DNA of 64,000 bases from an uncultured Candidatus Saccharibacteria bacterium (lineage in GTDB: Bacteria > Patescibacteriota > Minisyncoccia > Spechtbacterales > HO2-43-30), in contig CAZDDE010000001.1 in assembly GCA_964504205.1 (NCBI GenBank), positions 58,473-122,472 of the forward strand, given 5' to 3'. Every line of letters starts with the position of its first letter. The first letter of the stretch is position 1. Under the pieces are notes generated by a model. That model saw nothing but the letters and a program-made list of their open reading frames with translations. It did no database searches and was not told the DNA's origin. Of this stretch, positions 2,670-53,869 are shown in pieces. The position numbers and the translations under genes were made by a program.

Positions 2670-3431
2670 ATGCAAATAACTTTACCGAAACTACCCAAAA
2701 TTAAAGAGGAAGAAAAAAATAGAGCCGTATTTGTAATCGAAGATTTGTATCCGGGTTATGGCGTTACTGTCGGTAATGCCTTGCGACGCGCGCTTTATTC
2801 GTCAATACCCGGCGCGGCGATATCGCAGGTTAAAATAAAAGGCGCATCCCATGAGTTTTCAACCTTGAAGGGAGTGCTTGAAGATATTCTCGAGATAACT
2901 CTGAATCTTAAACAAATTTGTATCAAATTGCATGGCGACGAACCGCAGACCGCTTCCGTTAAGGTTAAGGGCGTTCGTGAGGTTACAGCGGCCGACATTG
3001 ATGCTCCAAGTCAGGTCGAAGTTATAAACAAGGATGCACACATCGCGACATTAACCAGTAAAGACGCGTCTTTCGAAATAGAACTGCTTATTGAAGCCGG
3101 ACTCGGTTACGTTCCGGTAGAGCAGCGCCAAAATGTTGGGGCGGAGATCGGTTCAATACCTTTGGATGCTATTTTTACGCCAATGCGTAAAGTAAATTTT
3201 GAAATTGAGAATATGCGCGTTGGCGACCGAACGGATTATAATCGCTTGGCGCTTGAAATAGTTACTAACGGGGCTATTTCTCCGCGAGAAGCACTTGTCT
3301 ACGCGGCAAAACTTCTCACCGAGCACTTTGCATTGGCGGGTGATATTGAGTTGCCAAAGGATTCTGCCGGAAAAGATAAAACTAAGGATAAACCGAGAAA
3401 AAAGATAATACGAAAAAAGATCAAGAAATAA
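2670..3431 (+). CDS. rpoA: DNA-directed RNA polymerase alpha subunit. It has the N-terminal dimerisation/assembly domain only and ends in a lysine-rich tail with no alpha C-terminal domain.
   Basis: 253 aa; alpha N-terminal domain motifs (GYGVTVGNALRRAL.SSIPGAAI); rplQ starts 9 nt downstream, so there is no room for a C-terminal domain. Confidence 0.88.
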   Translation: MQITLPKLPKIKEEEKNRAVFVIEDLYPGYGVTVGNALRRALYSSIPGAAISQVKIKGASHEFSTLKGVLEDILEITLNLKQICIKLHGDEPQTASVKVKGVREVTAADIDAPSQVEVINKDAHIATLTSKDASFEIELLIEAGLGYVPVEQRQNVGAEIGSIPLDAIFTPMRKVNFEIENMRVGDRTDYNRLALEIVTNGAISPREALVYAAKLLTEHFALAGDIELPKDSAGKDKTKDKPRKKIIRKKIKK

Positions 3432-4132: not shown

Positions 4133-4624
4133 ATGGCTACCGCGAAATCTTCAAAAAAAATTAAAAAGGCTAAGGTGAAGGAAGTAAAGGCCAAGGTGAT
4201 GGAAACGGAGGCTCCGGCAGAATCAAAGTCTCCAAGCCGCTATTATGAGGGTCTTGGCAGACGAAAACGCGCAGTTGCCCGCGTGCGCCTTTTTACCAGA
4301 GGCGAAAAGGGATTTCTGATCAATAATGTTGCGCATATTCAATATTTTCCAACCGAGGAGCTGCGCCTTATTGCGGACGCGGCATTAAGGAGAATGAAAG
4401 TGCTGGACAAGTTTGTGGTCTCGGTCAAGGTGATGGGTGGAGGAACTGCCGGGCAGGCAGAGGCCGTGCGGCATGGCATCTCGCGTGCGCTTATCAAATT
4501 TAATCCGGATTTCCGCAAGCGTCTCAAAAAATCTGGATTTTTGCGCCGCGATCCGCGGGAAAAAGAACGGCGCAAATTTGGCCTTAAGAAAGCAAGGAGA
4601 GCCCCGCAGTGGCAAAAGCGGTAG
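4133..4624 (+). CDS. rpsI: 30S ribosomal protein S9
   Basis: C-terminal GGG..GQA.A...GI.RAL......R..LKK.G.L.RD.R..ERKK.G..KAR.....KR is the S9 signature; a lysine-rich N-terminal extension is present. Confidence 0.92.
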   Translation: MATAKSSKKIKKAKVKEVKAKVMETEAPAESKSPSRYYEGLGRRKRAVARVRLFTRGEKGFLINNVAHIQYFPTEELRLIADAALRRMKVLDKFVVSVKVMGGGTAGQAEAVRHGISRALIKFNPDFRKRLKKSGFLRRDPREKERRKFGLKKARRAPQWQKR

Positions 4625-6007: not shown

Positions 6008-7294
6008 ATGTCCACATATCTTGTAATCAAAGGCGGAAAACGTTTATCCGGCACAATCCCTGTTTATGGATCAAAGAACGCCGCTTTGCCGATCATTGCG
6101 GCAACAATCCTCACAAAAACCCCATGCGTTATACGCAATATTCCGCGTGTTACGGATGTTCATGTAATGATTGATGCCCTGCGCGATATGGGCGCAAAAG
6201 TCTTGTGGAAGGATCGGCGGACGGTTATTATTGAGAATAAAGAGATTGATCCTGACAAGCTAAGCCAAAGCGCTGTGCAGAAAATGCGCGCCTCCATACT
6301 CTTTTGCGGTCCGCTGCTTGCGCGGTTTGGCGAAGTACGCAAAATGCATTACCCCGGCGGATGCAGTATAGGCGCGCGCCCAATCGATGTTCATTTGCGT
6401 TCATTTGAAGATTTGGGCGCAAAAGTAATTCGCGCGAATAATTTTTTCTCTATCTACAGAGAAGCGCGTCCCCGGTCACAAAATTCAGTTGTTTTAAACG
6501 AATTCAGTGTTACAGCAACCGAAAATGTTTTATTATTTGCAAGCGCAGTGCCGGAGCAAACGACGATTAAAATTGCTGCCGCAGAACCGCATGTTGCTGA
6601 TCTCGCCAAATTCCTTACAAAGACAGGTGCGCGAATACATGGCGCTGGGACTGCGCAAATCTCTATACGCGGTTCTGCAAATTTAATTGGAGCAACGCAC
6701 AGGATAATTGCTGATTACATTGAGGCCGGCACCTTTATCCTCATGGCTTTGGTGGCTGGCAGGGCAATTGAAATAAAAAATGCCCCAATCGAACATCTGG
6801 ACCTTGTTATTAAAAAACTTCGCGCGGCTGGAGGAAACATCGCTTGCAATCATCGCAAAAAAACAATAACCGTTCAATCTGGACGAAAAAGTTTAATTCT
6901 CGATAAGGTGCAAATCATGCCTTATCCCGGCATACCCACAGATTTGCAATCCGCCTTTGGCGTTTTTGCGGCTCGAACCGTTGGAGAAACGCTTATTCAC
7001 GAACCATTATATGAAAATCGTTTTGCCTGCCTAAAGGAACTAGCAAAATTTGGCGTAAGAATTAAAGCGCTTGATCCGCACCGTGCGATTGTGCATGGGC
7101 CAACAAACTTAAATGCCGCGGAAGTCAGCGGACACGACTTGCGCAGTGTCGCGGCCTTGGTCATTGCCGGGCTTGCGGCAAAGGGCACGACAATTGTCCG
7201 CGGCGCCGAGCACGTGGAGCGCGGCTACGAAAATTTGGAAGGCCGCCTGCTCGCCCTCGGGGCGAATATAAAGAAGGTTACAACTGACGATTGA
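6008..7294 (+). CDS. murA: UDP-N-acetylglucosamine 1-carboxyvinyltransferase
   Basis: 428 aa; MurA/EPSP-synthase fold motifs (GGK.LSG...V.GSKNAALPI..A..L; active-site loop ...PGGCSIG.RPID.H). Confidence 0.92.
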   Translation: MSTYLVIKGGKRLSGTIPVYGSKNAALPIIAATILTKTPCVIRNIPRVTDVHVMIDALRDMGAKVLWKDRRTVIIENKEIDPDKLSQSAVQKMRASILFCGPLLARFGEVRKMHYPGGCSIGARPIDVHLRSFEDLGAKVIRANNFFSIYREARPRSQNSVVLNEFSVTATENVLLFASAVPEQTTIKIAAAEPHVADLAKFLTKTGARIHGAGTAQISIRGSANLIGATHRIIADYIEAGTFILMALVAGRAIEIKNAPIEHLDLVIKKLRAAGGNIACNHRKKTITVQSGRKSLILDKVQIMPYPGIPTDLQSAFGVFAARTVGETLIHEPLYENRFACLKELAKFGVRIKALDPHRAIVHGPTNLNAAEVSGHDLRSVAALVIAGLAAKGTTIVRGAEHVERGYENLEGRLLALGANIKKVTTDD

Positions 7295-7304
7295 CTTTTG
7301 TTAA

Positions 7305-8324
7305 TTGTTTTTCATGTTTTCTCCTCGTAAAATTGGTATAGATCTTGGCACCTCAAACTCGCTTGTTTATGTGCCGAAAAAAGGCATTGTCATCAACGAG
7401 CCTTCGGTGGTGGCAATTTCAGTTGGCGATGGGGAAGTGCTCGCAGTGGGCAATGCCGCAAAAGCGATGATCGGCCGCACGCCTGATACAATCGTTGCTC
7501 ATCGCCCATTGAAGGACGGAGTTATCGCAGATTACCGCGTAACCGAAGCAATGATACGTCATTTTATCAGCCAAGTCAGCGGAAGAATACGTTTGTTTAA
7601 GCCGGAGGTTATGGTTTCCGTTCCAGCAGGGATTACCTCCACCGAACGGCGCGCGGTTATCGAAGCAACCATAAAAGCCGGCGCAAAGGCGGCATATGTG
7701 GTGAAAGAGCCGATTGTTGCAGCGATCGGGGCGGGCATTCCGATAAATTCTTCAACAGGGCATATGGTTGTGAATATTGGCGGCGGTACAACGGAAGTTG
7801 CGGTGATTTCATTGGGCGGAATAGTTTTTGCGAGTTCCGCCCGCGTCGGAGGCAACAAGATAGATGCGGCTATTACGGCGCATATTAAGCAAAAGCACGA
7901 TCTTGCTATTGGTGAACAAACCGCCGAAGAAATTAAAAAATCAATCGGCAGCGCTATACCAATAAAAGATGAGGAGGAACTTGTCATTCGCGGTCGCGAT
8001 ATGCTTACTGGTTTACCGCGCAATATCACTATAAAAACCAACGAGGTTACCGAGGCAATGACTGATATTCTGCGCGTGATTGTGCAAACTGTTAAGGCGG
8101 TTTTGCGGGAAACTCCGCCCGAACTTTCGGCGGATGTTATGGATAAAGGTATGGTCCTCACTGGCGGCGGGTCGCTCTTGCGCAACATAGATACTCTGCT
8201 TACGGAAGCTACCGGCGTTGCCGCGCATCTTGCCGAGGACCCTCTCCTTTGCGTCGCCAAAGGCACCGGTGTTGCGCTCGAAAACTTGGAAGTGTACAAG
8301 CGCAGCATAATGAGTAAGAAATAG
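7305..8324 (+). CDS. mreB: rod shape-determining protein MreB, paralog 1
   Basis: IGIDLGTSNS phosphate-1 motif, NIGGGTTEVAVISLGG phosphate-2 motif, an adenosine motif and LTGGGSLL; actin/Hsp70 fold. Confidence 0.9.
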   Translation: MFFMFSPRKIGIDLGTSNSLVYVPKKGIVINEPSVVAISVGDGEVLAVGNAAKAMIGRTPDTIVAHRPLKDGVIADYRVTEAMIRHFISQVSGRIRLFKPEVMVSVPAGITSTERRAVIEATIKAGAKAAYVVKEPIVAAIGAGIPINSSTGHMVVNIGGGTTEVAVISLGGIVFASSARVGGNKIDAAITAHIKQKHDLAIGEQTAEEIKKSIGSAIPIKDEEELVIRGRDMLTGLPRNITIKTNEVTEAMTDILRVIVQTVKAVLRETPPELSADVMDKGMVLTGGGSLLRNIDTLLTEATGVAAHLAEDPLLCVAKGTGVALENLEVYKRSIMSKK

Positions 8325-12881: not shown

Positions 12882-12941
12882 TCTTTAGTAAAGTTAGTAC
12901 TTACGCGTTTGCCGTATTTTATTCATAACTCCCCCTTGCCT

Positions 12942-13018
12942 CCCCCTCTTACCTTAAGAGGGGGAAACTCGGCACACGGCTTTGTGCTGCGCTCCCCTCT
13001 CTTAATGTAAGAGAGGGG
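12942..13018. repeat. pair of near-identical GC-rich palindromic hairpins (REP-like)
   Basis: CCCCCTCTTA-cct-TAAGAGGGGG (12942-12964) and CCCCTCTCTTA-atg-TAAGAGAGGGG (12994-13018), each a perfect 10-11-bp stem. No T-tract follows, so they are not classical terminators. Confidence 0.7.
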
Positions 13019-13075
13019 ACGGGGGTGAGTTATACAGTGCAAGCGCGTAAGTCCTAAAATTTAGGCATATCTAAA

Positions 13076-14066
13076 ATGGTTCAATAGAGCCAAAAATAGA
13101 AATCATCTACTAAAAAATGGTTCTACAAGGCCGTTTTTTAATATGTAACTACGTTTTCTAATCAATAGCTTTGCATCACCTCGTTCGGTGTTTTGAACTG
13201 TAATCCCATATGCGGTCGTTCCTCATTGTAGTATCGGAGATAATCCGGTATTTCTTTTTGCCACGATTTCAAACTCCTTGGGATACGGTTCAAACACTCG
13301 TCCTGTATGGTCCGATTGAACCTCTCAAGATGAGCGTTGTCGTTCGGTTTTCGGACTCGAGAATGGCGATGCGCGATCCCGTCAACCGCCACCATTTTCG
13401 TGAACCACTTCGAGAACTCCGGTCCGTGATCCGACTGCAGGGTCTTGACCAGAAATGGTAGTGACGCTGTCCGCACAAATTTCAGACTTCTATGGGTACT
13501 GATTCTCATTGCTGGCTCGGCCCTGGAACAAACATCCAGTATGGTATATACATACAATCTATTCTCATGCGGTCCATCGTGAATCGTGTCAATTTCCACT
13601 AATACGCCTGGTTTTTCAGCTAAAGGCCGTTCCGGATACTGATGCCACTTCTTCCAGCGGGAGTACCGGCTGCAGCCAAATCTCTTCAATACCCGCTTCA
13701 CCGAACTCAAGCTTGCCTGGTAGCCGTCATTCGTTAATCGATGGTGGAGAATCTCCGCGCACTGATGTCTTTCCGACCGGTATTCAAGAATCTTCCTTAC
13801 GATTTCTTGAGAAAGTTCCCGCGGATGATGATGGGGACGACAAGAGCGAGTGGGGATTACCAGTAAGTTAGAATTCCGCGCCTGTTCGACCCAGCGGACA
13901 ATGGAACTTTGATGGTATCCGGTGTGCCTGGAGACTCGTCTCGTGCTCCAGCCGTCACGAATTACCAACTGAGCGGCTTTCATCCGAAGCCGAGGAATAT
14001 ATTGATTTGTAGTGTATGGCATACCCATAGCTTAGAGCCATAGGTGATGCAAAGCTATTGAACCAT
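13076..14066 (-). mobile_element. IS481-family insertion sequence (single-ORF DDE transposase) with 24-bp terminal inverted repeats; the left repeat is interrupted
   Basis: Right inverted repeat GGTGATGCAAAGCTATTGAACCAT (14043-14066). Its reverse complement ATGGTTCAATAG|CTTTGCATCACC occurs on the left as 13076-13087 plus 13169-13180, split by about 75 bp followed by a repeated CAATAG. Confidence 0.7.
13162..14028 (-). CDS. IS481-family transposase (rve/DDE integrase core with N-terminal HTH)
   Basis: D (VEIDTIH), D (LQSDHGPEF), E (NDNAHLERFNRTIQDE), ERPHMGL motif; 288 aa single ORF. Confidence 0.88.
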   Translation of the reverse strand: MGMPYTTNQYIPRLRMKAAQLVIRDGWSTRRVSRHTGYHQSSIVRWVEQARNSNLLVIPTRSCRPHHHPRELSQEIVRKILEYRSERHQCAEILHHRLTNDGYQASLSSVKRVLKRFGCSRYSRWKKWHQYPERPLAEKPGVLVEIDTIHDGPHENRLYVYTILDVCSRAEPAMRISTHRSLKFVRTASLPFLVKTLQSDHGPEFSKWFTKMVAVDGIAHRHSRVRKPNDNAHLERFNRTIQDECLNRIPRSLKSWQKEIPDYLRYYNEERPHMGLQFKTPNEVMQSY

Positions 14067-14067
14067 A

Positions 14068-14889
14068 ACGAACTATTGACAAATATATTATTATATGCTA
14101 TAATGGGACTGTAAAATAAAGATACAAAAGTTCCTTGAAACAGAACAAGAGAAGAGAGACCCAACCCGAGGGCATCGGGATATAACCATAAGCAGGTTAA
14201 AGTATATGTTAAATAAGACGGTTGAGAAATCTCTTCTCTAGATGAAGTATCTAAGAAAAGATTTCCCAGCCGTTTTTCATTGCCCTTCCGAAGCTCCCGA
14301 GAGCGAAGGAGGGAGGAGAGAGTAATAAGATGGGTGGACACTAAACAACATATAATTGGTCTTAACCCACATCTTACAAAATTCATCCCGCACTTATTAT
14401 GAACAAGCTACGCTTAGAAACGCAGTCAGTTCATAATAAGTGCGGGACTCATCCTCCATCCTTGGCCCTCGAAGCTTTATGCGAAGTGGGCCTTCTCTCT
14501 AGATACGAGAGAAGATGTGAATTTAAGAGCTTGGGTAGTTCTTTCAAACGAAATAGTCATAGGTGGGGGACAAAGTGTCCTTGATGCAGAATTGAGGATA
14601 TCTCGTCCTTCACCTTCTCCGACTGCTCTGGATAAATTTCAAATCGTCCAGTGAAAGTGGAGGTCCCCTCAAGGTAAGGGAAAGGAGATAGACGTCGGCT
14701 TAGCCGACGTAATCCTCAGCATGGCATGGGTCTCGACCTGGCCATGTCTAAAGGGGCAGGATAACCTGCTCCGCGTGTCCTAACGAAAAGTTAGGGGAGC
14801 GCGTATTGCAAGATACGTAGCTCCCCGCTTCCACCGAATTTCTCACTTGCAAAAGTGGGAGATTCAGAGGAGGAGAGTTCTCTGAGAGA
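14068..14889. ncRNA. ORF-free, highly structured ~820-bp region; candidate large noncoding RNA of unknown class
   Basis: No ORF of 60 aa or more in any frame in an otherwise gene-dense genome. Many perfect or near-perfect local hairpins: 18-bp stem CCCGCACTTATTATGAAC/GTTCATAATAAGTGCGGG at 14383-14445; GCAGG-ataa-CCTGC; CGCG...CCTAAC-gaaaa-GTTAGG...CGCG (GNRA-like loop); GACGTCGGC-tta-GCCGACGT; CATGGC...GCCATG. Confidence 0.4.
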
Positions 14890-15147
14890 TTATCGATAGA
14901 TGTCTTTGCGATGGTCTATATCAAAAAAGACAGCGTGGTTTGTATCTTTGAAGTAAAAGAAAACCCGATATCGTCGGGTAATACGGAAAGAAAGCGCGTA
15001 ACCAAGACTTTGCACCTTCTTGATATGCAGACGGGAGTCTCGCCAGTTCAAAAAGAAGCGTTGTTGTTGTAGAGTGTAAATTTTCTGAATTTCTTTCGGG
15101 AGTTTGCGCGACGCTTTTTCAAAGTCGGCGGTCTTGATTATTTCCAT
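14890..15147 (-). CDS. type II toxin, RelE/ParE superfamily
   Basis: 85 aa; ...RITRRYRVFFYF.....AVFFDIDHRKDIY matches the RelE/ParE C-terminal beta-sheet and R/K catalytic pattern; overlaps the upstream antitoxin ORF by 10 nt. Confidence 0.7.
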   Translation of the reverse strand: MEIIKTADFEKASRKLPKEIQKIYTLQQQRFFLNWRDSRLHIKKVQSLGYALSFRITRRYRVFFYFKDTNHAVFFDIDHRKDIYR

Positions 15148-15353
15148 GAGAAAGGAGCAGGAGGATGCTTCCGTGTTGCGTTTTCATAGGAACGTTTGAG
15201 ACGAGTGGGATGGGCATAGTTTTTTAAACGATCCTGCGGGAGAAAAAGCATCATATCATTGCGAAGATAGCGCAATTCCTGCAGAATCGCTTGTAGTATC
15301 TCTGAATTTTCAGTAGTCTTTTTAGGAAAATTTGCTGTATTAGTTAAAGCCAT
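15138..15353 (-). CDS. putative antitoxin partner of the RelE/ParE-like toxin
   Basis: 71-aa ORF immediately upstream of the toxin with a 10-nt overlap; antitoxin-first gene order. Confidence 0.5.
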   Translation of the reverse strand: MALTNTANFPKKTTENSEILQAILQELRYLRNDMMLFLPQDRLKNYAHPTRLKRSYENATRKHPPAPFSWK

Positions 15354-15579
15354 ATACCTATTGTATCTTTCTAAATAAAAAAGTCAAATTTCTCCATCAA
15401 AGCGCGTCTTTCGGTAAACTCAAGATGCTTTTCGGTGGGGAAGTAAGCCCAAAATGATGAGGTTTTTCAAACAAATATTCCTCATGAGGCTGCCGAGTTA
15501 TGGGACATAAATCTCTCTTCTCACTCATCGCTTATGCGATGAGCTGTCCCGTGGCTCGCAGCCTCATGGTGAGTATTTA

Positions 15580-15615
15580 AAAATCCCCTGTCATCATATG
15601 ACAGGGGATTTTGCT
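15580..15615. terminator. bidirectional rho-independent terminator
   Basis: ATCCCCTGTCAT-cat-ATGACAGGGGAT perfect 12-bp stem flanked by an A-run on the 5' side and a T-run on the 3' side; 2 nt past the CDF transporter stop. Confidence 0.8.
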
Positions 15616-15616
15616 T

Positions 15617-46136: not shown

Positions 46137-46165
46137 TTGACAATTTTTTGCCATGGTCTTATAAT
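46137..46165 (+). promoter_or_regulatory. consensus sigma70 promoter for groES-groEL; TTGACA, 17-bp spacer, TATAAT
   Basis: TTGACA 46137-46142 and TATAAT 46160-46165, with exact consensus and spacing. Confidence 0.7.
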
Positions 46166-46188
46166 GGGGTGTACATTAAAATTATCAG

Positions 46189-46295
46189 TCAAAGGTCAAG
46201 TTTGATAAAAGGTCATGAAACCTGAAACCTGAAACCTGAATTATTTTTTCAACAAAGGATCATGTTTCAGTAGTTGTGTTTCGTGTTTCATGTTT
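46189..46295 (+). promoter_or_regulatory. repeat-structured groES leader: GGTCA repeats, (TGAAACC)x3 and an imperfect inverted (GTTTCA) repeat set; candidate non-CIRCE heat-shock control element
   Basis: AGTCAAAGGTCAAG...GGTCA; TGAAACCTGAAACCTGAAACCTGAA (46216-46240); CATGTTTCAGTAGTTGTGTTTCGTGTTTCATG (46261-46292) can pair with the heptad array. Confidence 0.5.
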
Positions 46296-46303
46296 TAAGT
46301 TAC

Positions 46304-48290: not shown

Positions 48291-48294
48291 TACT

Positions 48295-48334
48295 AAAACA
48301 AATCATCGGGGTCAGCCCCGATGATTTGTTTTAG
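48295..48334 (+). terminator. rho-independent terminator after groEL
   Basis: AAACAAATCATCGGGG-tcag-CCCCGATGATTTGTTT perfect 16-bp stem followed by T-rich sequence. Confidence 0.85.
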
Positions 48335-48460
48335 TCTGTGGTTTTATTTTGGCGCATATTACCCTCTGTTTTTTCTTACCGAAGAGTGGTATGAAAAAGA
48401 TGGCTCATTAAAATTTTTATATTCTCCCCCGTAAGAATAGGGGAGTAGGAGGTGATCGTT

Positions 48461-53742: not shown

Positions 53743-53820
53743 CAATAGTGGTTCGCCCCGTCATGCGATGGGGCGGGGGGTCGTATGACCCCTCGAATCC
53801 TAGTCCCCGAGCTATTCAGC

Positions 53821-53852
53821 AATAAATACGCACGTCGACGTGCGTATTTATT
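53821..53852. terminator. perfect 32-bp palindrome hairpin between the tRNA and the DEAD-box helicase 3' end
   Basis: AATAAATACGCACGTC|GACGTGCGTATTTATT. Confidence 0.6.
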
Positions 53853-53869
53853 GGCTCTTTGAAGCTTTT

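Follow-up and report, generated by a model that had tools for sequence, protein, structure and literature searches.

The locus described here lies within a 64,000-nt stretch of DNA from an uncultured Candidatus Saccharibacteria bacterium (contig CAZDDE010000001.1), which we refer to as the window and in whose numbering all coordinates are given. The region under study is a gap of about 0.8 kb (14068-14889), bordered by an IS481-family insertion sequence (IS) and by a convergent type II toxin-antitoxin pair. The closest relatives found in genome and protein searches are Patescibacteria, or Candidate Phyla Radiation (CPR), the nearest named ones being Spechtbacteria and Portnoybacteria, and four further metagenome assemblies contain the locus in identical form; its contigs recur in ERZ27284375/6/8 and SRR8863434. 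We compared the region with the rseP neighbourhoods of the closest relatives and with other Patescibacteria loci. Two loci proved informative: L086, a related CPR contig, and L052, a Kaiserbacteria metagenome-assembled genome (MAG). Our verdict, drawn from sequence comparison, is that the window copy belongs to a new family of structured leaders or non-coding RNAs (ncRNAs) and is without its open reading frame (ORF), the function of the family being predicted. The parts of the unit, several of which resemble a Shine-Dalgarno (SD) sequence or its complement, are listed below.

14076-14104, + strand: sigma-70 promoter TTGACA-17-TATAAT with a TG-extended -10 element, 12 of 12 consensus positions
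14111-14545, + strand: conserved 5' domain of ~435 nt, made up of a ~300-nt common core and window-only hairpin inserts
14127-14162, + strand: 5' motifs AAAGUUCCUUGAAACAG and AGAGAAGAGAGACC, with collinear matches in L086 and L052
14184-14199, + strand: window-only insert in the alignment with L086
14215-14276, + strand: P2, a 27-bp hairpin and the best-supported conserved helix, with the junction UUUUUCAUUG directly after it
14300-14323, + strand: SD-like purine strand AGAGCGAAGGAGGGAGGAGAGAGU, the 5' strand of a long-range helix
14326-14376, + strand: P5, a 15-bp hairpin of the predicted fold, within the long-range helix
about 14382-14446, + strand: window-only insert with a perfect 18-bp stem, not in L086 at the aligned junction, and placed at 14382-14442 by the alignment
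14447-14503, + strand: anti-SD-like pyrimidine tract ACUCAUCCUCCAUCCUU...CUUCUCUCU, the 3' strand of the long-range helix
14460-14490, + strand: window-only hairpin that breaks the pyrimidine tract, from the alignment with L086
14501-14519, + strand: window-only insert in the same alignment
14507-14520, + strand: apparent start remnant read from the sequence, SD-like GAGAGAAG (14507-14514) followed by AUG UGA (14515-14520)
14546-14889, + strand: window-only 3' extension of ~345 nt with about ten hairpins

The promoter reads into the region, its -35 hexamer lying 15 nt beyond the right inverted repeat of the IS. From this motif we infer that the region is transcribed on the + strand, with a start predicted near 14111. 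Only two perfect sigma-70 sites occur in the 64-kb window, the other (46137-46165) directly preceding groES/groEL, and in L018, a related genome, a promoter of the same kind drives the RNase P RNA. The promoter is retained in L086 as TTGACA-17-TATACT and also in L052, where its flanks CTATTGACAAATA...ATGCTATACT are common to the window and L052.

The minimum free energy (MFE) of the region is -321.2 kcal/mol, against -226.2 +/- 8.3 kcal/mol for dinucleotide shuffles (z = -11.4). On the reverse strand z is -11.3, and for the + strand of the conserved 5' domain alone it is -10.3. When the MFE of 300-nt sliding windows was regressed on GC content over all 64 kb, the strongest structure outliers all fell within 12.8-15.7 kb, with 14201-14500 and 14601-14900 among them. 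Dense hairpins had been presented in the preliminary description as a property of 14068-14889, but the neighbouring non-coding pieces are just as structured (12882-13161, z = -9.4; 15354-15616, z = -11.6).

L086, whose rseP gene is 77% identical to that of the window, is the only close relative fetched that carries a related island. A gap-tolerant alignment showed that L086:2477-2985 is homologous to window 14111-14545, the two sequences being common up to ~14545. Four core blocks in this segment (14148-14186, 14203-14295, 14300-14381 and 14446-14463) are 94-100% identical, against a background of ~80% over the end of rseP and the other alignable island DNA. After the common part, L086 has a good SD, GAGAGGAAG, and then AUG GAG..., which opens a 196-aa ORF (ORF196) at 3004. 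ORF196 is an orphan that has no Pfam or PADLOC match and whose AlphaFold model is unusable (predicted local distance difference test score, pLDDT, of 32), and tblastn found no homologue of it in the window.

The two sequences differ mostly by whole hairpins found in one lineage, and every such indel is a self-contained hairpin at a junction. Besides the four window-only inserts listed above, L086 has two of its own, a 36-nt hairpin and a 142-nt piece inside the conserved RNA (L086:2658-2799) that is flanked by 11-nt direct repeats, GCGAAGGAGGG; direct repeats flanking the window inserts measure at most 4-6 nt. Both L086 inserts begin with AACCCCG and end with CGGGGT, which hints at a small palindromic insertion-element family in the L086 genome. 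The 18-bp stem of the window, placed at 14383-14445 in the preliminary description, is present and perfect, with arms a few nucleotides away from there (14387-14404 and 14429-14446); it contains no wobble pairs and has no second copy in the window.

Substitutions in the shared columns tend to respect the fold. In the RNAalifold consensus, 5 out of 5 differing pairs still pair (14240/14252, 14251, 14362, 14368 and 14447), one through an A-U to U-A double change and four through one-sided changes to G-U, which would leave a C-A mismatch on the opposite strand. When the pairs were taken from the MFE structure of the window alone, which is independent of L086, 7 of the 10 changed pairs survived on the + strand and 2 of 10 on the - strand, and the three pairs that were broken are peripheral. 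The substitutions that fall in predicted pairs of P5 are all one-sided, between G-C and G-U, and keep the pair on the + strand only.

The gain and loss of hairpins as indels, including the wobble-free 18-bp stem and the 142-nt L086 insert with its direct repeats, would also be expected if the region were a decaying accessory-island spacer that gathers palindromic insertions, with the promoter and core as leftovers and the hairpins without a role at the RNA level. All three non-coding pieces of the island are hairpin-dense, and the locus has an IS and swapped toxin-antitoxin cassettes. However, conservation of the core far exceeds that of rseP, the essential gene next to it, the substitutions preserve pairing on the + strand only, and P2 covaries in a distant, phylum-level relative. 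Moreover, the energy asymmetry of the 3' half described below (17 versus 9 G-U pairs) is unexpected for DNA palindromes and no hairpin is repeated elsewhere in the window. We consequently give the decaying spacer a small chance only. An RNA of 0.5-0.8 kb behind the strongest promoter type of the genome is unlikely to be idle because CPR genomes hold almost no spare non-coding DNA.

Blastn and nhmmer searches of 80 rseP loci from GTDB species, blastn searches of phage and plasmid collections, and exact and IUPAC motif scans of viral contigs found no homologue, and a metagenome scan with an 18-mer of the core returned 45 loci that were all chance matches, one of them within a coding ORF. Independently of sequence searches, we ranked 102 sigma-70 sites with <=1 mismatch, drawn from 1.42 Mb of Patescibacteria loci and the window, by the folding energy of the 600 nt downstream. 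The top five sites (L009, L052, L049, L086 and the window) are all TG-extended and have no ORF downstream, and the sixth is the RNase P promoter of L018. This ranking exposed L052 as a homologue. In all, it recovered the RNase P RNA and three unannotated RNAs in about 1.4 Mb, which suggests that CPR genomes could be mined cheaply for new RNAs by combining promoter and structure.

The homologous segment, L052:3698-4175, belongs to a genome with an rseP identity of only 40%. Its collinearity with the window RNA covers the promoter flanks, AAAGUUCGUUGUAAGAG, AGAGGAGAGAG, a long hairpin with an identical AUCUCUUCUCU arm and the junction UUUUUUUAUUG, followed further 3' by a variable hairpin, GAUGAAGGAGGAAG, a variable domain, UUACCUCCCAUCUUAAGGG, a hairpin and AAGAAGGAGGUGACCGAUG, which opens a 159-aa orphan ORF at 4176 (ORF159) that belongs to no family and is unrelated to ORF196. 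In a three-sequence RNAalifold analysis of the P2 region, 4 of the 26 consensus pairs carry compensatory double changes. When a covariance model was trained on just the window and L086, its top match in 1.35 Mb was L052:3787-3879 (26.6 bits, E = 0.0074, the calibration being rough), and a three-sequence model found no further family member in the relatives' loci. Manual alignment indicates that the distal half of the purine/pyrimidine helix may also covary in L052 (GAAGGA/UCCUUC versus AGAUG/CAUCU). The L052 unit is placed after murA-mreB and before orphans and a MoxR-like AAA gene, again an accessory context. The known family thus amounts to 3 loci in about 1.4 Mb of relatives, found with ParE-type modules in the window, with PIN-type modules in L086 and with none in L052.

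The order of the core is the same in the window, L086 and L052: a 5' purine motif, P2 with its invariant AUCUCUUCUCU arm, a UUUUYAUUG junction, an SD-like purine strand (GAAGGAGG...), a variable inner domain and an anti-SD-like tract, CCUCC.AUC.UU, that resembles the 3' tail of 16S rRNA. The purine strand of the window (14300-14323) pairs with 14447-14500 both in the window-only MFE structure and in the alifold consensus, and 1% of shuffles form as good a duplex with the pyrimidine tract. A second set of alternatives is seen further 5', where the AGAGRAGAGA motif is complementary to the invariant P2 arm UCUCUUCUCU, the L052 equivalent having been read from the sequence. In the window it is the second 5' motif, AGAGAAGAGAGACC, that is complementary to UCUCUUCUCU in the 5' arm of P2 (alternative pairing AGAGAAGAGA/UCUCUUCUCU), with 10 nt of perfect complementarity between 14148-14157 and 14230-14239. 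The pairings open to the pyrimidine tract are as follows.

Tract with the upstream purine strand: window -28.2 kcal/mol, L086 -31.8 kcal/mol, L052 -15.0 kcal/mol
Tract with the SD of the downstream ORF: L086 -22.8 kcal/mol (p = 0.04), L052 -18.4 kcal/mol (p = 0.007)
Tract with the remnant SD-like GAGAGAAG of the window: -14.9 kcal/mol (p = 0.013)

The conserved anti-SD segment therefore has alternative partners, with duplexes that beat shuffles except for the upstream pairing of L052, and in the MFE structure of L052 the tract sequesters the SD of ORF159. The RNA lies between the promoter and the ORF in L086 (ORF196) and in L052 (ORF159). The window has no homologue of either ORF and shows at this place only GAGAGAAG and AUG-UGA, an apparent remnant of a translation start in which the start codon is followed by an immediate stop.

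Since both the upstream purine strand and the ribosome-binding site of the ORF are potential partners of the tract, a conformational switch is the likeliest mode of action. In the model that we favor, the small accessory island between rseP and czcD would carry one + strand transcription unit, driven by the extended -10 promoter at 14076-14104, and the first ~435 nt of the RNA would be the structured 5' leader that defines the family in Patescibacteria. With the pyrimidine tract on the SD, the strongly transcribed cargo mRNA would be kept translationally silent; with the tract on the upstream purine strand, the SD would be released and the cargo translated. The window copy would have had its cargo ORF lost or replaced, leaving AUG-UGA. 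We put the prediction that the family acts as such an anti-anti-SD/anti-SD/SD translational switch behind a constitutive promoter at about an even chance. A cis-regulatory leader fits better than a stand-alone RNA of the GOLLD/ROOL type because both homologues are leaders before an ORF.

Several observations weigh against the switch. The two ORFs downstream (196 and 159 aa) are orphans, unrelated to each other and without a family, and may not be real genes. The window core is ~94% identical to that of L086 even though it has no ORF, which argues for a role of the RNA itself unless the loss of the ORF is very recent. The purine/pyrimidine duplex of L052 (-15.0 kcal/mol) is no better than shuffles (p = 0.31), three family members are known, of which two are close to each other, and the covariation outside P2 comes from a manual alignment. 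Substitutions are not significantly depleted in paired columns (p = 0.10), and a shuffle control for the two-sequence alignment was uninformative, as it has no power at n = 2. Finally, no intrinsic terminator with a U-tract was found at the + strand end of the transcript.

The main rival model has an RNA that acts by itself, the whole ~780-nt transcript being a stand-alone large ncRNA of a new class with a trans-acting or structural role, and the ORFs found elsewhere being incidental cargo. Such an RNA could be a scaffold, or a decoy that presents an SD/anti-SD mimic. The best argument for it is the ~94% identity of the core in a lineage without a downstream ORF. The promoter is also of the type used for stable RNAs and groESL, the 3' half is strongly structured specifically on the + strand and has GNRA loops, and L009 encodes an unrelated, ORF-free RNA of ~730 nt that has the same kind of promoter and its own terminator, indicating that large hairpin-dense RNAs recur in CPR genomes. 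In contrast, the 3' half has no homologue in any locus compared, 2 out of the 3 family members end at an ORF whose SD complements the conserved tract, and the RNA sits on an accessory island missing from most close relatives, which means that it is dispensable. On balance a stand-alone RNA appears somewhat unlikely, and its narrower form, a functional CPR-specific RNA class of ~780 nt that has at its heart an internal SD/anti-SD duplex mimicking the 3' tail of 16S rRNA, strikes us as quite doubtful. In this narrower form the RNA would act in trans, for instance by decoying or sensing factors that bind or cleave the SD/anti-SD helix, such as the toxins of the adjacent toxin-antitoxin modules. 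Patescibacteria would then have several such fast-evolving hairpin arrays transcribed from consensus promoters, the L009 RNA being another.

The L009 RNA candidate occupies L009:7024-7800 of an uncultured Ca. Saccharibacteria MAG (CAYRDM010000011.1), between proS and mreB. It is hairpin-dense (folding z = -14.3), is preceded by a perfect 12/12 TG-extended promoter (7024-7053) and ends at an intrinsic terminator (7765-7783). The candidate gives no Rfam match and no tRNA or tmRNA call, and contains CACCUCCUU, which is 16S-tail-like, and UGGAGGUGA. It has no sequence similarity to the window RNA and was rejected as a homologue. At the L049 site of the ranking (L049:8887-9150), a near-consensus TG-extended promoter is followed by a ~90-nt hairpin-plus-terminator transcript and then by a second structured segment, without an Rfam match at the gathering score.

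To return to the leader with its predicted switch, nothing equivalent to the 3' extension of the window copy (14546-14889) is present in L086, L052 or the other fetched loci. The extension folds at -159.3 kcal/mol on the + strand (z = -9.0) and at -128.3 kcal/mol on the - strand (z = -5.9), an advantage of 31 kcal/mol for the + strand, with 17 G-U pairs on the + strand versus 9 on the - strand, and it contains two GCAA tetraloops, in the hairpins 14794-14826 and 14836-14865. Judged from these folding models, the tail is a selected-looking RNA. It would stabilise the transcript, or halt it before an antisense run into the toxin-antitoxin operon; the structured stretch stops at the stop codon of the convergent ParE-like toxin gene. 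Every hairpin singled out in the preliminary description was found again in the region and, apart from the 18-bp stem, they map to this tail.

14692-14710, + strand: hairpin ACGUCGGC-UUA-GCCGACGU
14719-14747, + strand: hairpin CAUGGC...GCCAUG
14753-14772, + strand: hairpin GGGGCAGG-AUAA-CCUGCUCC
near 14779-14795, + strand: hairpin CCUAAC-GAAAA-GUUAGG

The most conspicuous hairpins are consequently not those of the conserved RNA, the 18-bp stem being an insertion of a single lineage and the four others lying in the half that has no homologue. The proposal of a structured RNA is supported, but conservation is limited to the ~435 nt of the 5' domain.

We also considered whether the region is, or was, coding. 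The statement that it has no ORF of >=60 aa is wrong when taken literally, as mechanical ORFs of 143 aa (13955-14386, - strand) and 61 aa (14399-14584, + strand) overlap it. Neither has a Pfam match, and a six-frame protein-family search of the region, which has 9-20 stops per frame, gave no signal. The 143-aa ORF is split and frameshifted in L086, its substitutions are spread 4/4/5 over the codon positions, and a protein search with it, run to catch miscalled homologues, returned the query itself only. With no family signal, no codon-position bias and no conservation of the ORF, a pseudogene or frameshifted protein gene was rejected.

A degraded gene of this kind shares a further explanation with RNAs that would be part of the neighbouring mobile or toxin-antitoxin elements, namely an omega or bridge guide RNA or a type III antitoxin, for which the adjoining IS481 and toxin-antitoxin pair speak, as the 143-aa ORF does for a gene. 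The RNA lies outside the inverted repeats of the IS, its homologues in L086 and L052 have no IS, and the transposase is of the DDE rve type, so that an IS-encoded guide RNA (the omega RNA of IscB/TnpB or the bridge RNA of IS110) was discarded. A ToxI-like type III antitoxin was discarded as well, because the region has no tandem or direct repeat families and the toxin-antitoxin genes form a two-protein pair on the opposite strand; besides, the family occurs with ParE-type, PIN-type or no toxin-antitoxin modules. This group of explanations is largely refuted and its chance of being right is slight indeed.

Comparison with known RNA classes was made with Rfam 15, whose models include RNase P, group I/II introns, OLE, GOLLD, ROOL and HEARO. 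At the gathering threshold, 2 tRNAs were the only matches in the whole window; at E<=10, 13900-15100 gave only weak miRNA-type hairpin matches (5-24 bits, against thresholds of 35-94), and scans of both flanks, of the L086 island and of L009 gave no match. A class outside the known ones, as first proposed, is thus borne out. The resemblance of some segments to P4 and P10-11 of RNase P did not hold up: no RNase P match appears at E<=10, while the same tool finds the true RNase P RNA of L018 with 217 bits, and the region is missing from most close relatives, unlike a housekeeping RNA. Bacterial RNase P RNA was therefore rejected. An ORF-less group II intron was rejected in the absence of an Intron_gpII or group-II-D1D4 match at E<=10; the hairpin 14794-14826 is domain V (DV)-like, with an AGC triad and a GCAA loop, but a bulged A is missing from the hairpin that follows it and the RNA does not open with GUGYG. 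A CsrB/RsmZ-type sponge was dismissed on its GGA motifs (17 versus 18.6 +/- 2.9 in dinucleotide shuffles), and a REP/MITE-type repeat element because the 64-kb window contains no repeat of >=40 nt and the arm of the 18-bp stem occurs only in its own hairpin. An internal duplication of the 5' half inside the 3' half was likewise rejected. A full-text literature search for a matching CPR-specific structured RNA returned no relevant paper. Taken together, the consensus promoter, the lack of Rfam and protein signals, and the conservation and compensatory changes among homologues agree with an ncRNA outside the known classes, but the large ornate form is only partly supported.

The unit is part of a small island whose limits were defined from the relatives. 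Convergent czcD lies 13-64 nt after rseP in L085, L089, L091, L137, L139, L140/141 and L142, and in L090 a PIN toxin gene directly follows rseP, without the RNA unit on that side. Because rseP and czcD adjoin in most close relatives, we consider the 2.7 kb from 12882 to 15616 to be an accessory island. Its genes are the following.

13162-14061, - strand: IS481-family IS with a DDE transposase gene (13162-14028; rve, rve_3 and LZ_Tnp_IS481 Pfam matches)
14890-15353, - strand: convergent type II toxin-antitoxin pair, with the ParE-like toxin at 14890-15147 (weak match)

Both neighbours had been correctly named in the preliminary description (an IS481 copy and a RelE/ParE-type toxin-antitoxin pair), the toxin match being ParE-like and weak. 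The IS has perfect terminal inverted repeats of 20 nt (13162-13181 and 14042-14061). As L086 has the RNA in uninterrupted sequence without IS481, the IS is a later insertion and a bystander that does not form part of the RNA unit. No target-site duplication is evident at the present IS. A 12-nt sequence, ATGGTTCAATAG, at 13076-13087 is the exact reverse complement of 14055-14066, the outer end of the right inverted repeat, and could be the solo end of an earlier insertion or a preferred target.

The two outer non-coding pieces have hairpins of their own. Between the rseP stop and the IS (12882-13161) lies a nested hairpin of ~150 nt that encloses the palindromes CTCCCCCTCTTACCTTAAGAGGGGGA and CTCCCCTCTCTTAATGTAAGAGAGGGGA and is not alignable with L086, where a different perfect hairpin is found at that spot; the two terminator-like hairpins of 13061-13139 are conserved in L086. 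Between the antitoxin start and the czcD stop (15354-15616), a ~100-nt hairpin (~15473-15570) and a 15-bp perfect bidirectional terminator (15580-15612) are found, with no Rfam match. The promoter region of the toxin-antitoxin pair (15358-15453) is 83.5% conserved with L086:4748-4844, including TTGACT-16-TACAAT on the - strand, and the genes behind it differ from the start codon on, a ParE-like pair in the window and a PIN plus AbrB-like pair in L086; at the sequence level this looks like a cassette swap behind a fixed promoter.

Elsewhere in the window, the groESL leader (46137-46300) has three tandem GAAACCT repeats (~46217-46240) followed by a partly complementary GTTTC-rich stretch, and a canonical CIRCE element was not seen in it by eye. 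A perfect 20-bp hairpin directly after groEL (48292-48335) is probably a terminator, and a 34-nt perfect loopless palindrome lies near tRNA-Gln (53820-53853). The source genome seems to favor very long perfect stems as its usual terminators.

Among known systems, the large 'ornate' bacterial ncRNAs GOLLD, ROOL, OLE and HEARO (Weinberg et al. 2010, PMC2864571; Weinberg et al. 2017, PMC5737381; Kretsch et al. 2025, PMC12286853) are those that the preliminary description had in mind. The window RNA is like them in its size of 0.6-0.8 kb, in its many hairpins and GNRA loops and in its location in accessory or mobile DNA, and to that extent the comparison stands. Unlike them, it has no covariance-model match at E<=10, it is conserved only in its 5' half and its homologues lead ORFs; the family is also very narrow and was absent from the viral, phage and plasmid searches.

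Stable RNAs may carry variable peripheral helices, such as expansion segments and intervening sequences, and small palindromic insertion elements are known as REP, MITE and RPE. In the same way, single-lineage hairpins are inserted at junctions of the window RNA and leave the conserved core helices intact. Unlike REP, MITE and RPE, the window inserts are all different and none is repeated in the 64-kb window, so that membership in a repeat family cannot be shown.

The closest parallel to the switch that we predict is with translational leaders that sequester the SD, which include the expression platforms of riboswitches, RNA thermometers and, in type I toxin-antitoxin systems, the fold-back-inhibited hok mRNA. 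Like these, the family is a long structured 5' untranslated region behind a constitutive promoter, in which a tract can pair either with the SD or with an upstream anti-anti-SD purine strand, forming mutually exclusive helices from conserved segments. It differs from known leaders in that it matches no Rfam leader or riboswitch, and from RNA thermometers in its much larger conserved core (~300 nt). Moreover, the genes that follow it are orphans unrelated to one another, not a single regulated family, and the window copy has no ORF at all. The family would be a concrete example of post-transcriptional control of accessory or orphan genes in CPR bacteria, with a conserved RNA core that tolerates fast hairpin gain and loss. 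The mechanism class, SD sequestration in a long leader, is already known; what is new is the family itself, how large it is, the unrelated orphan cargo that it accompanies on accessory islands and the ease with which it gains and loses hairpins.

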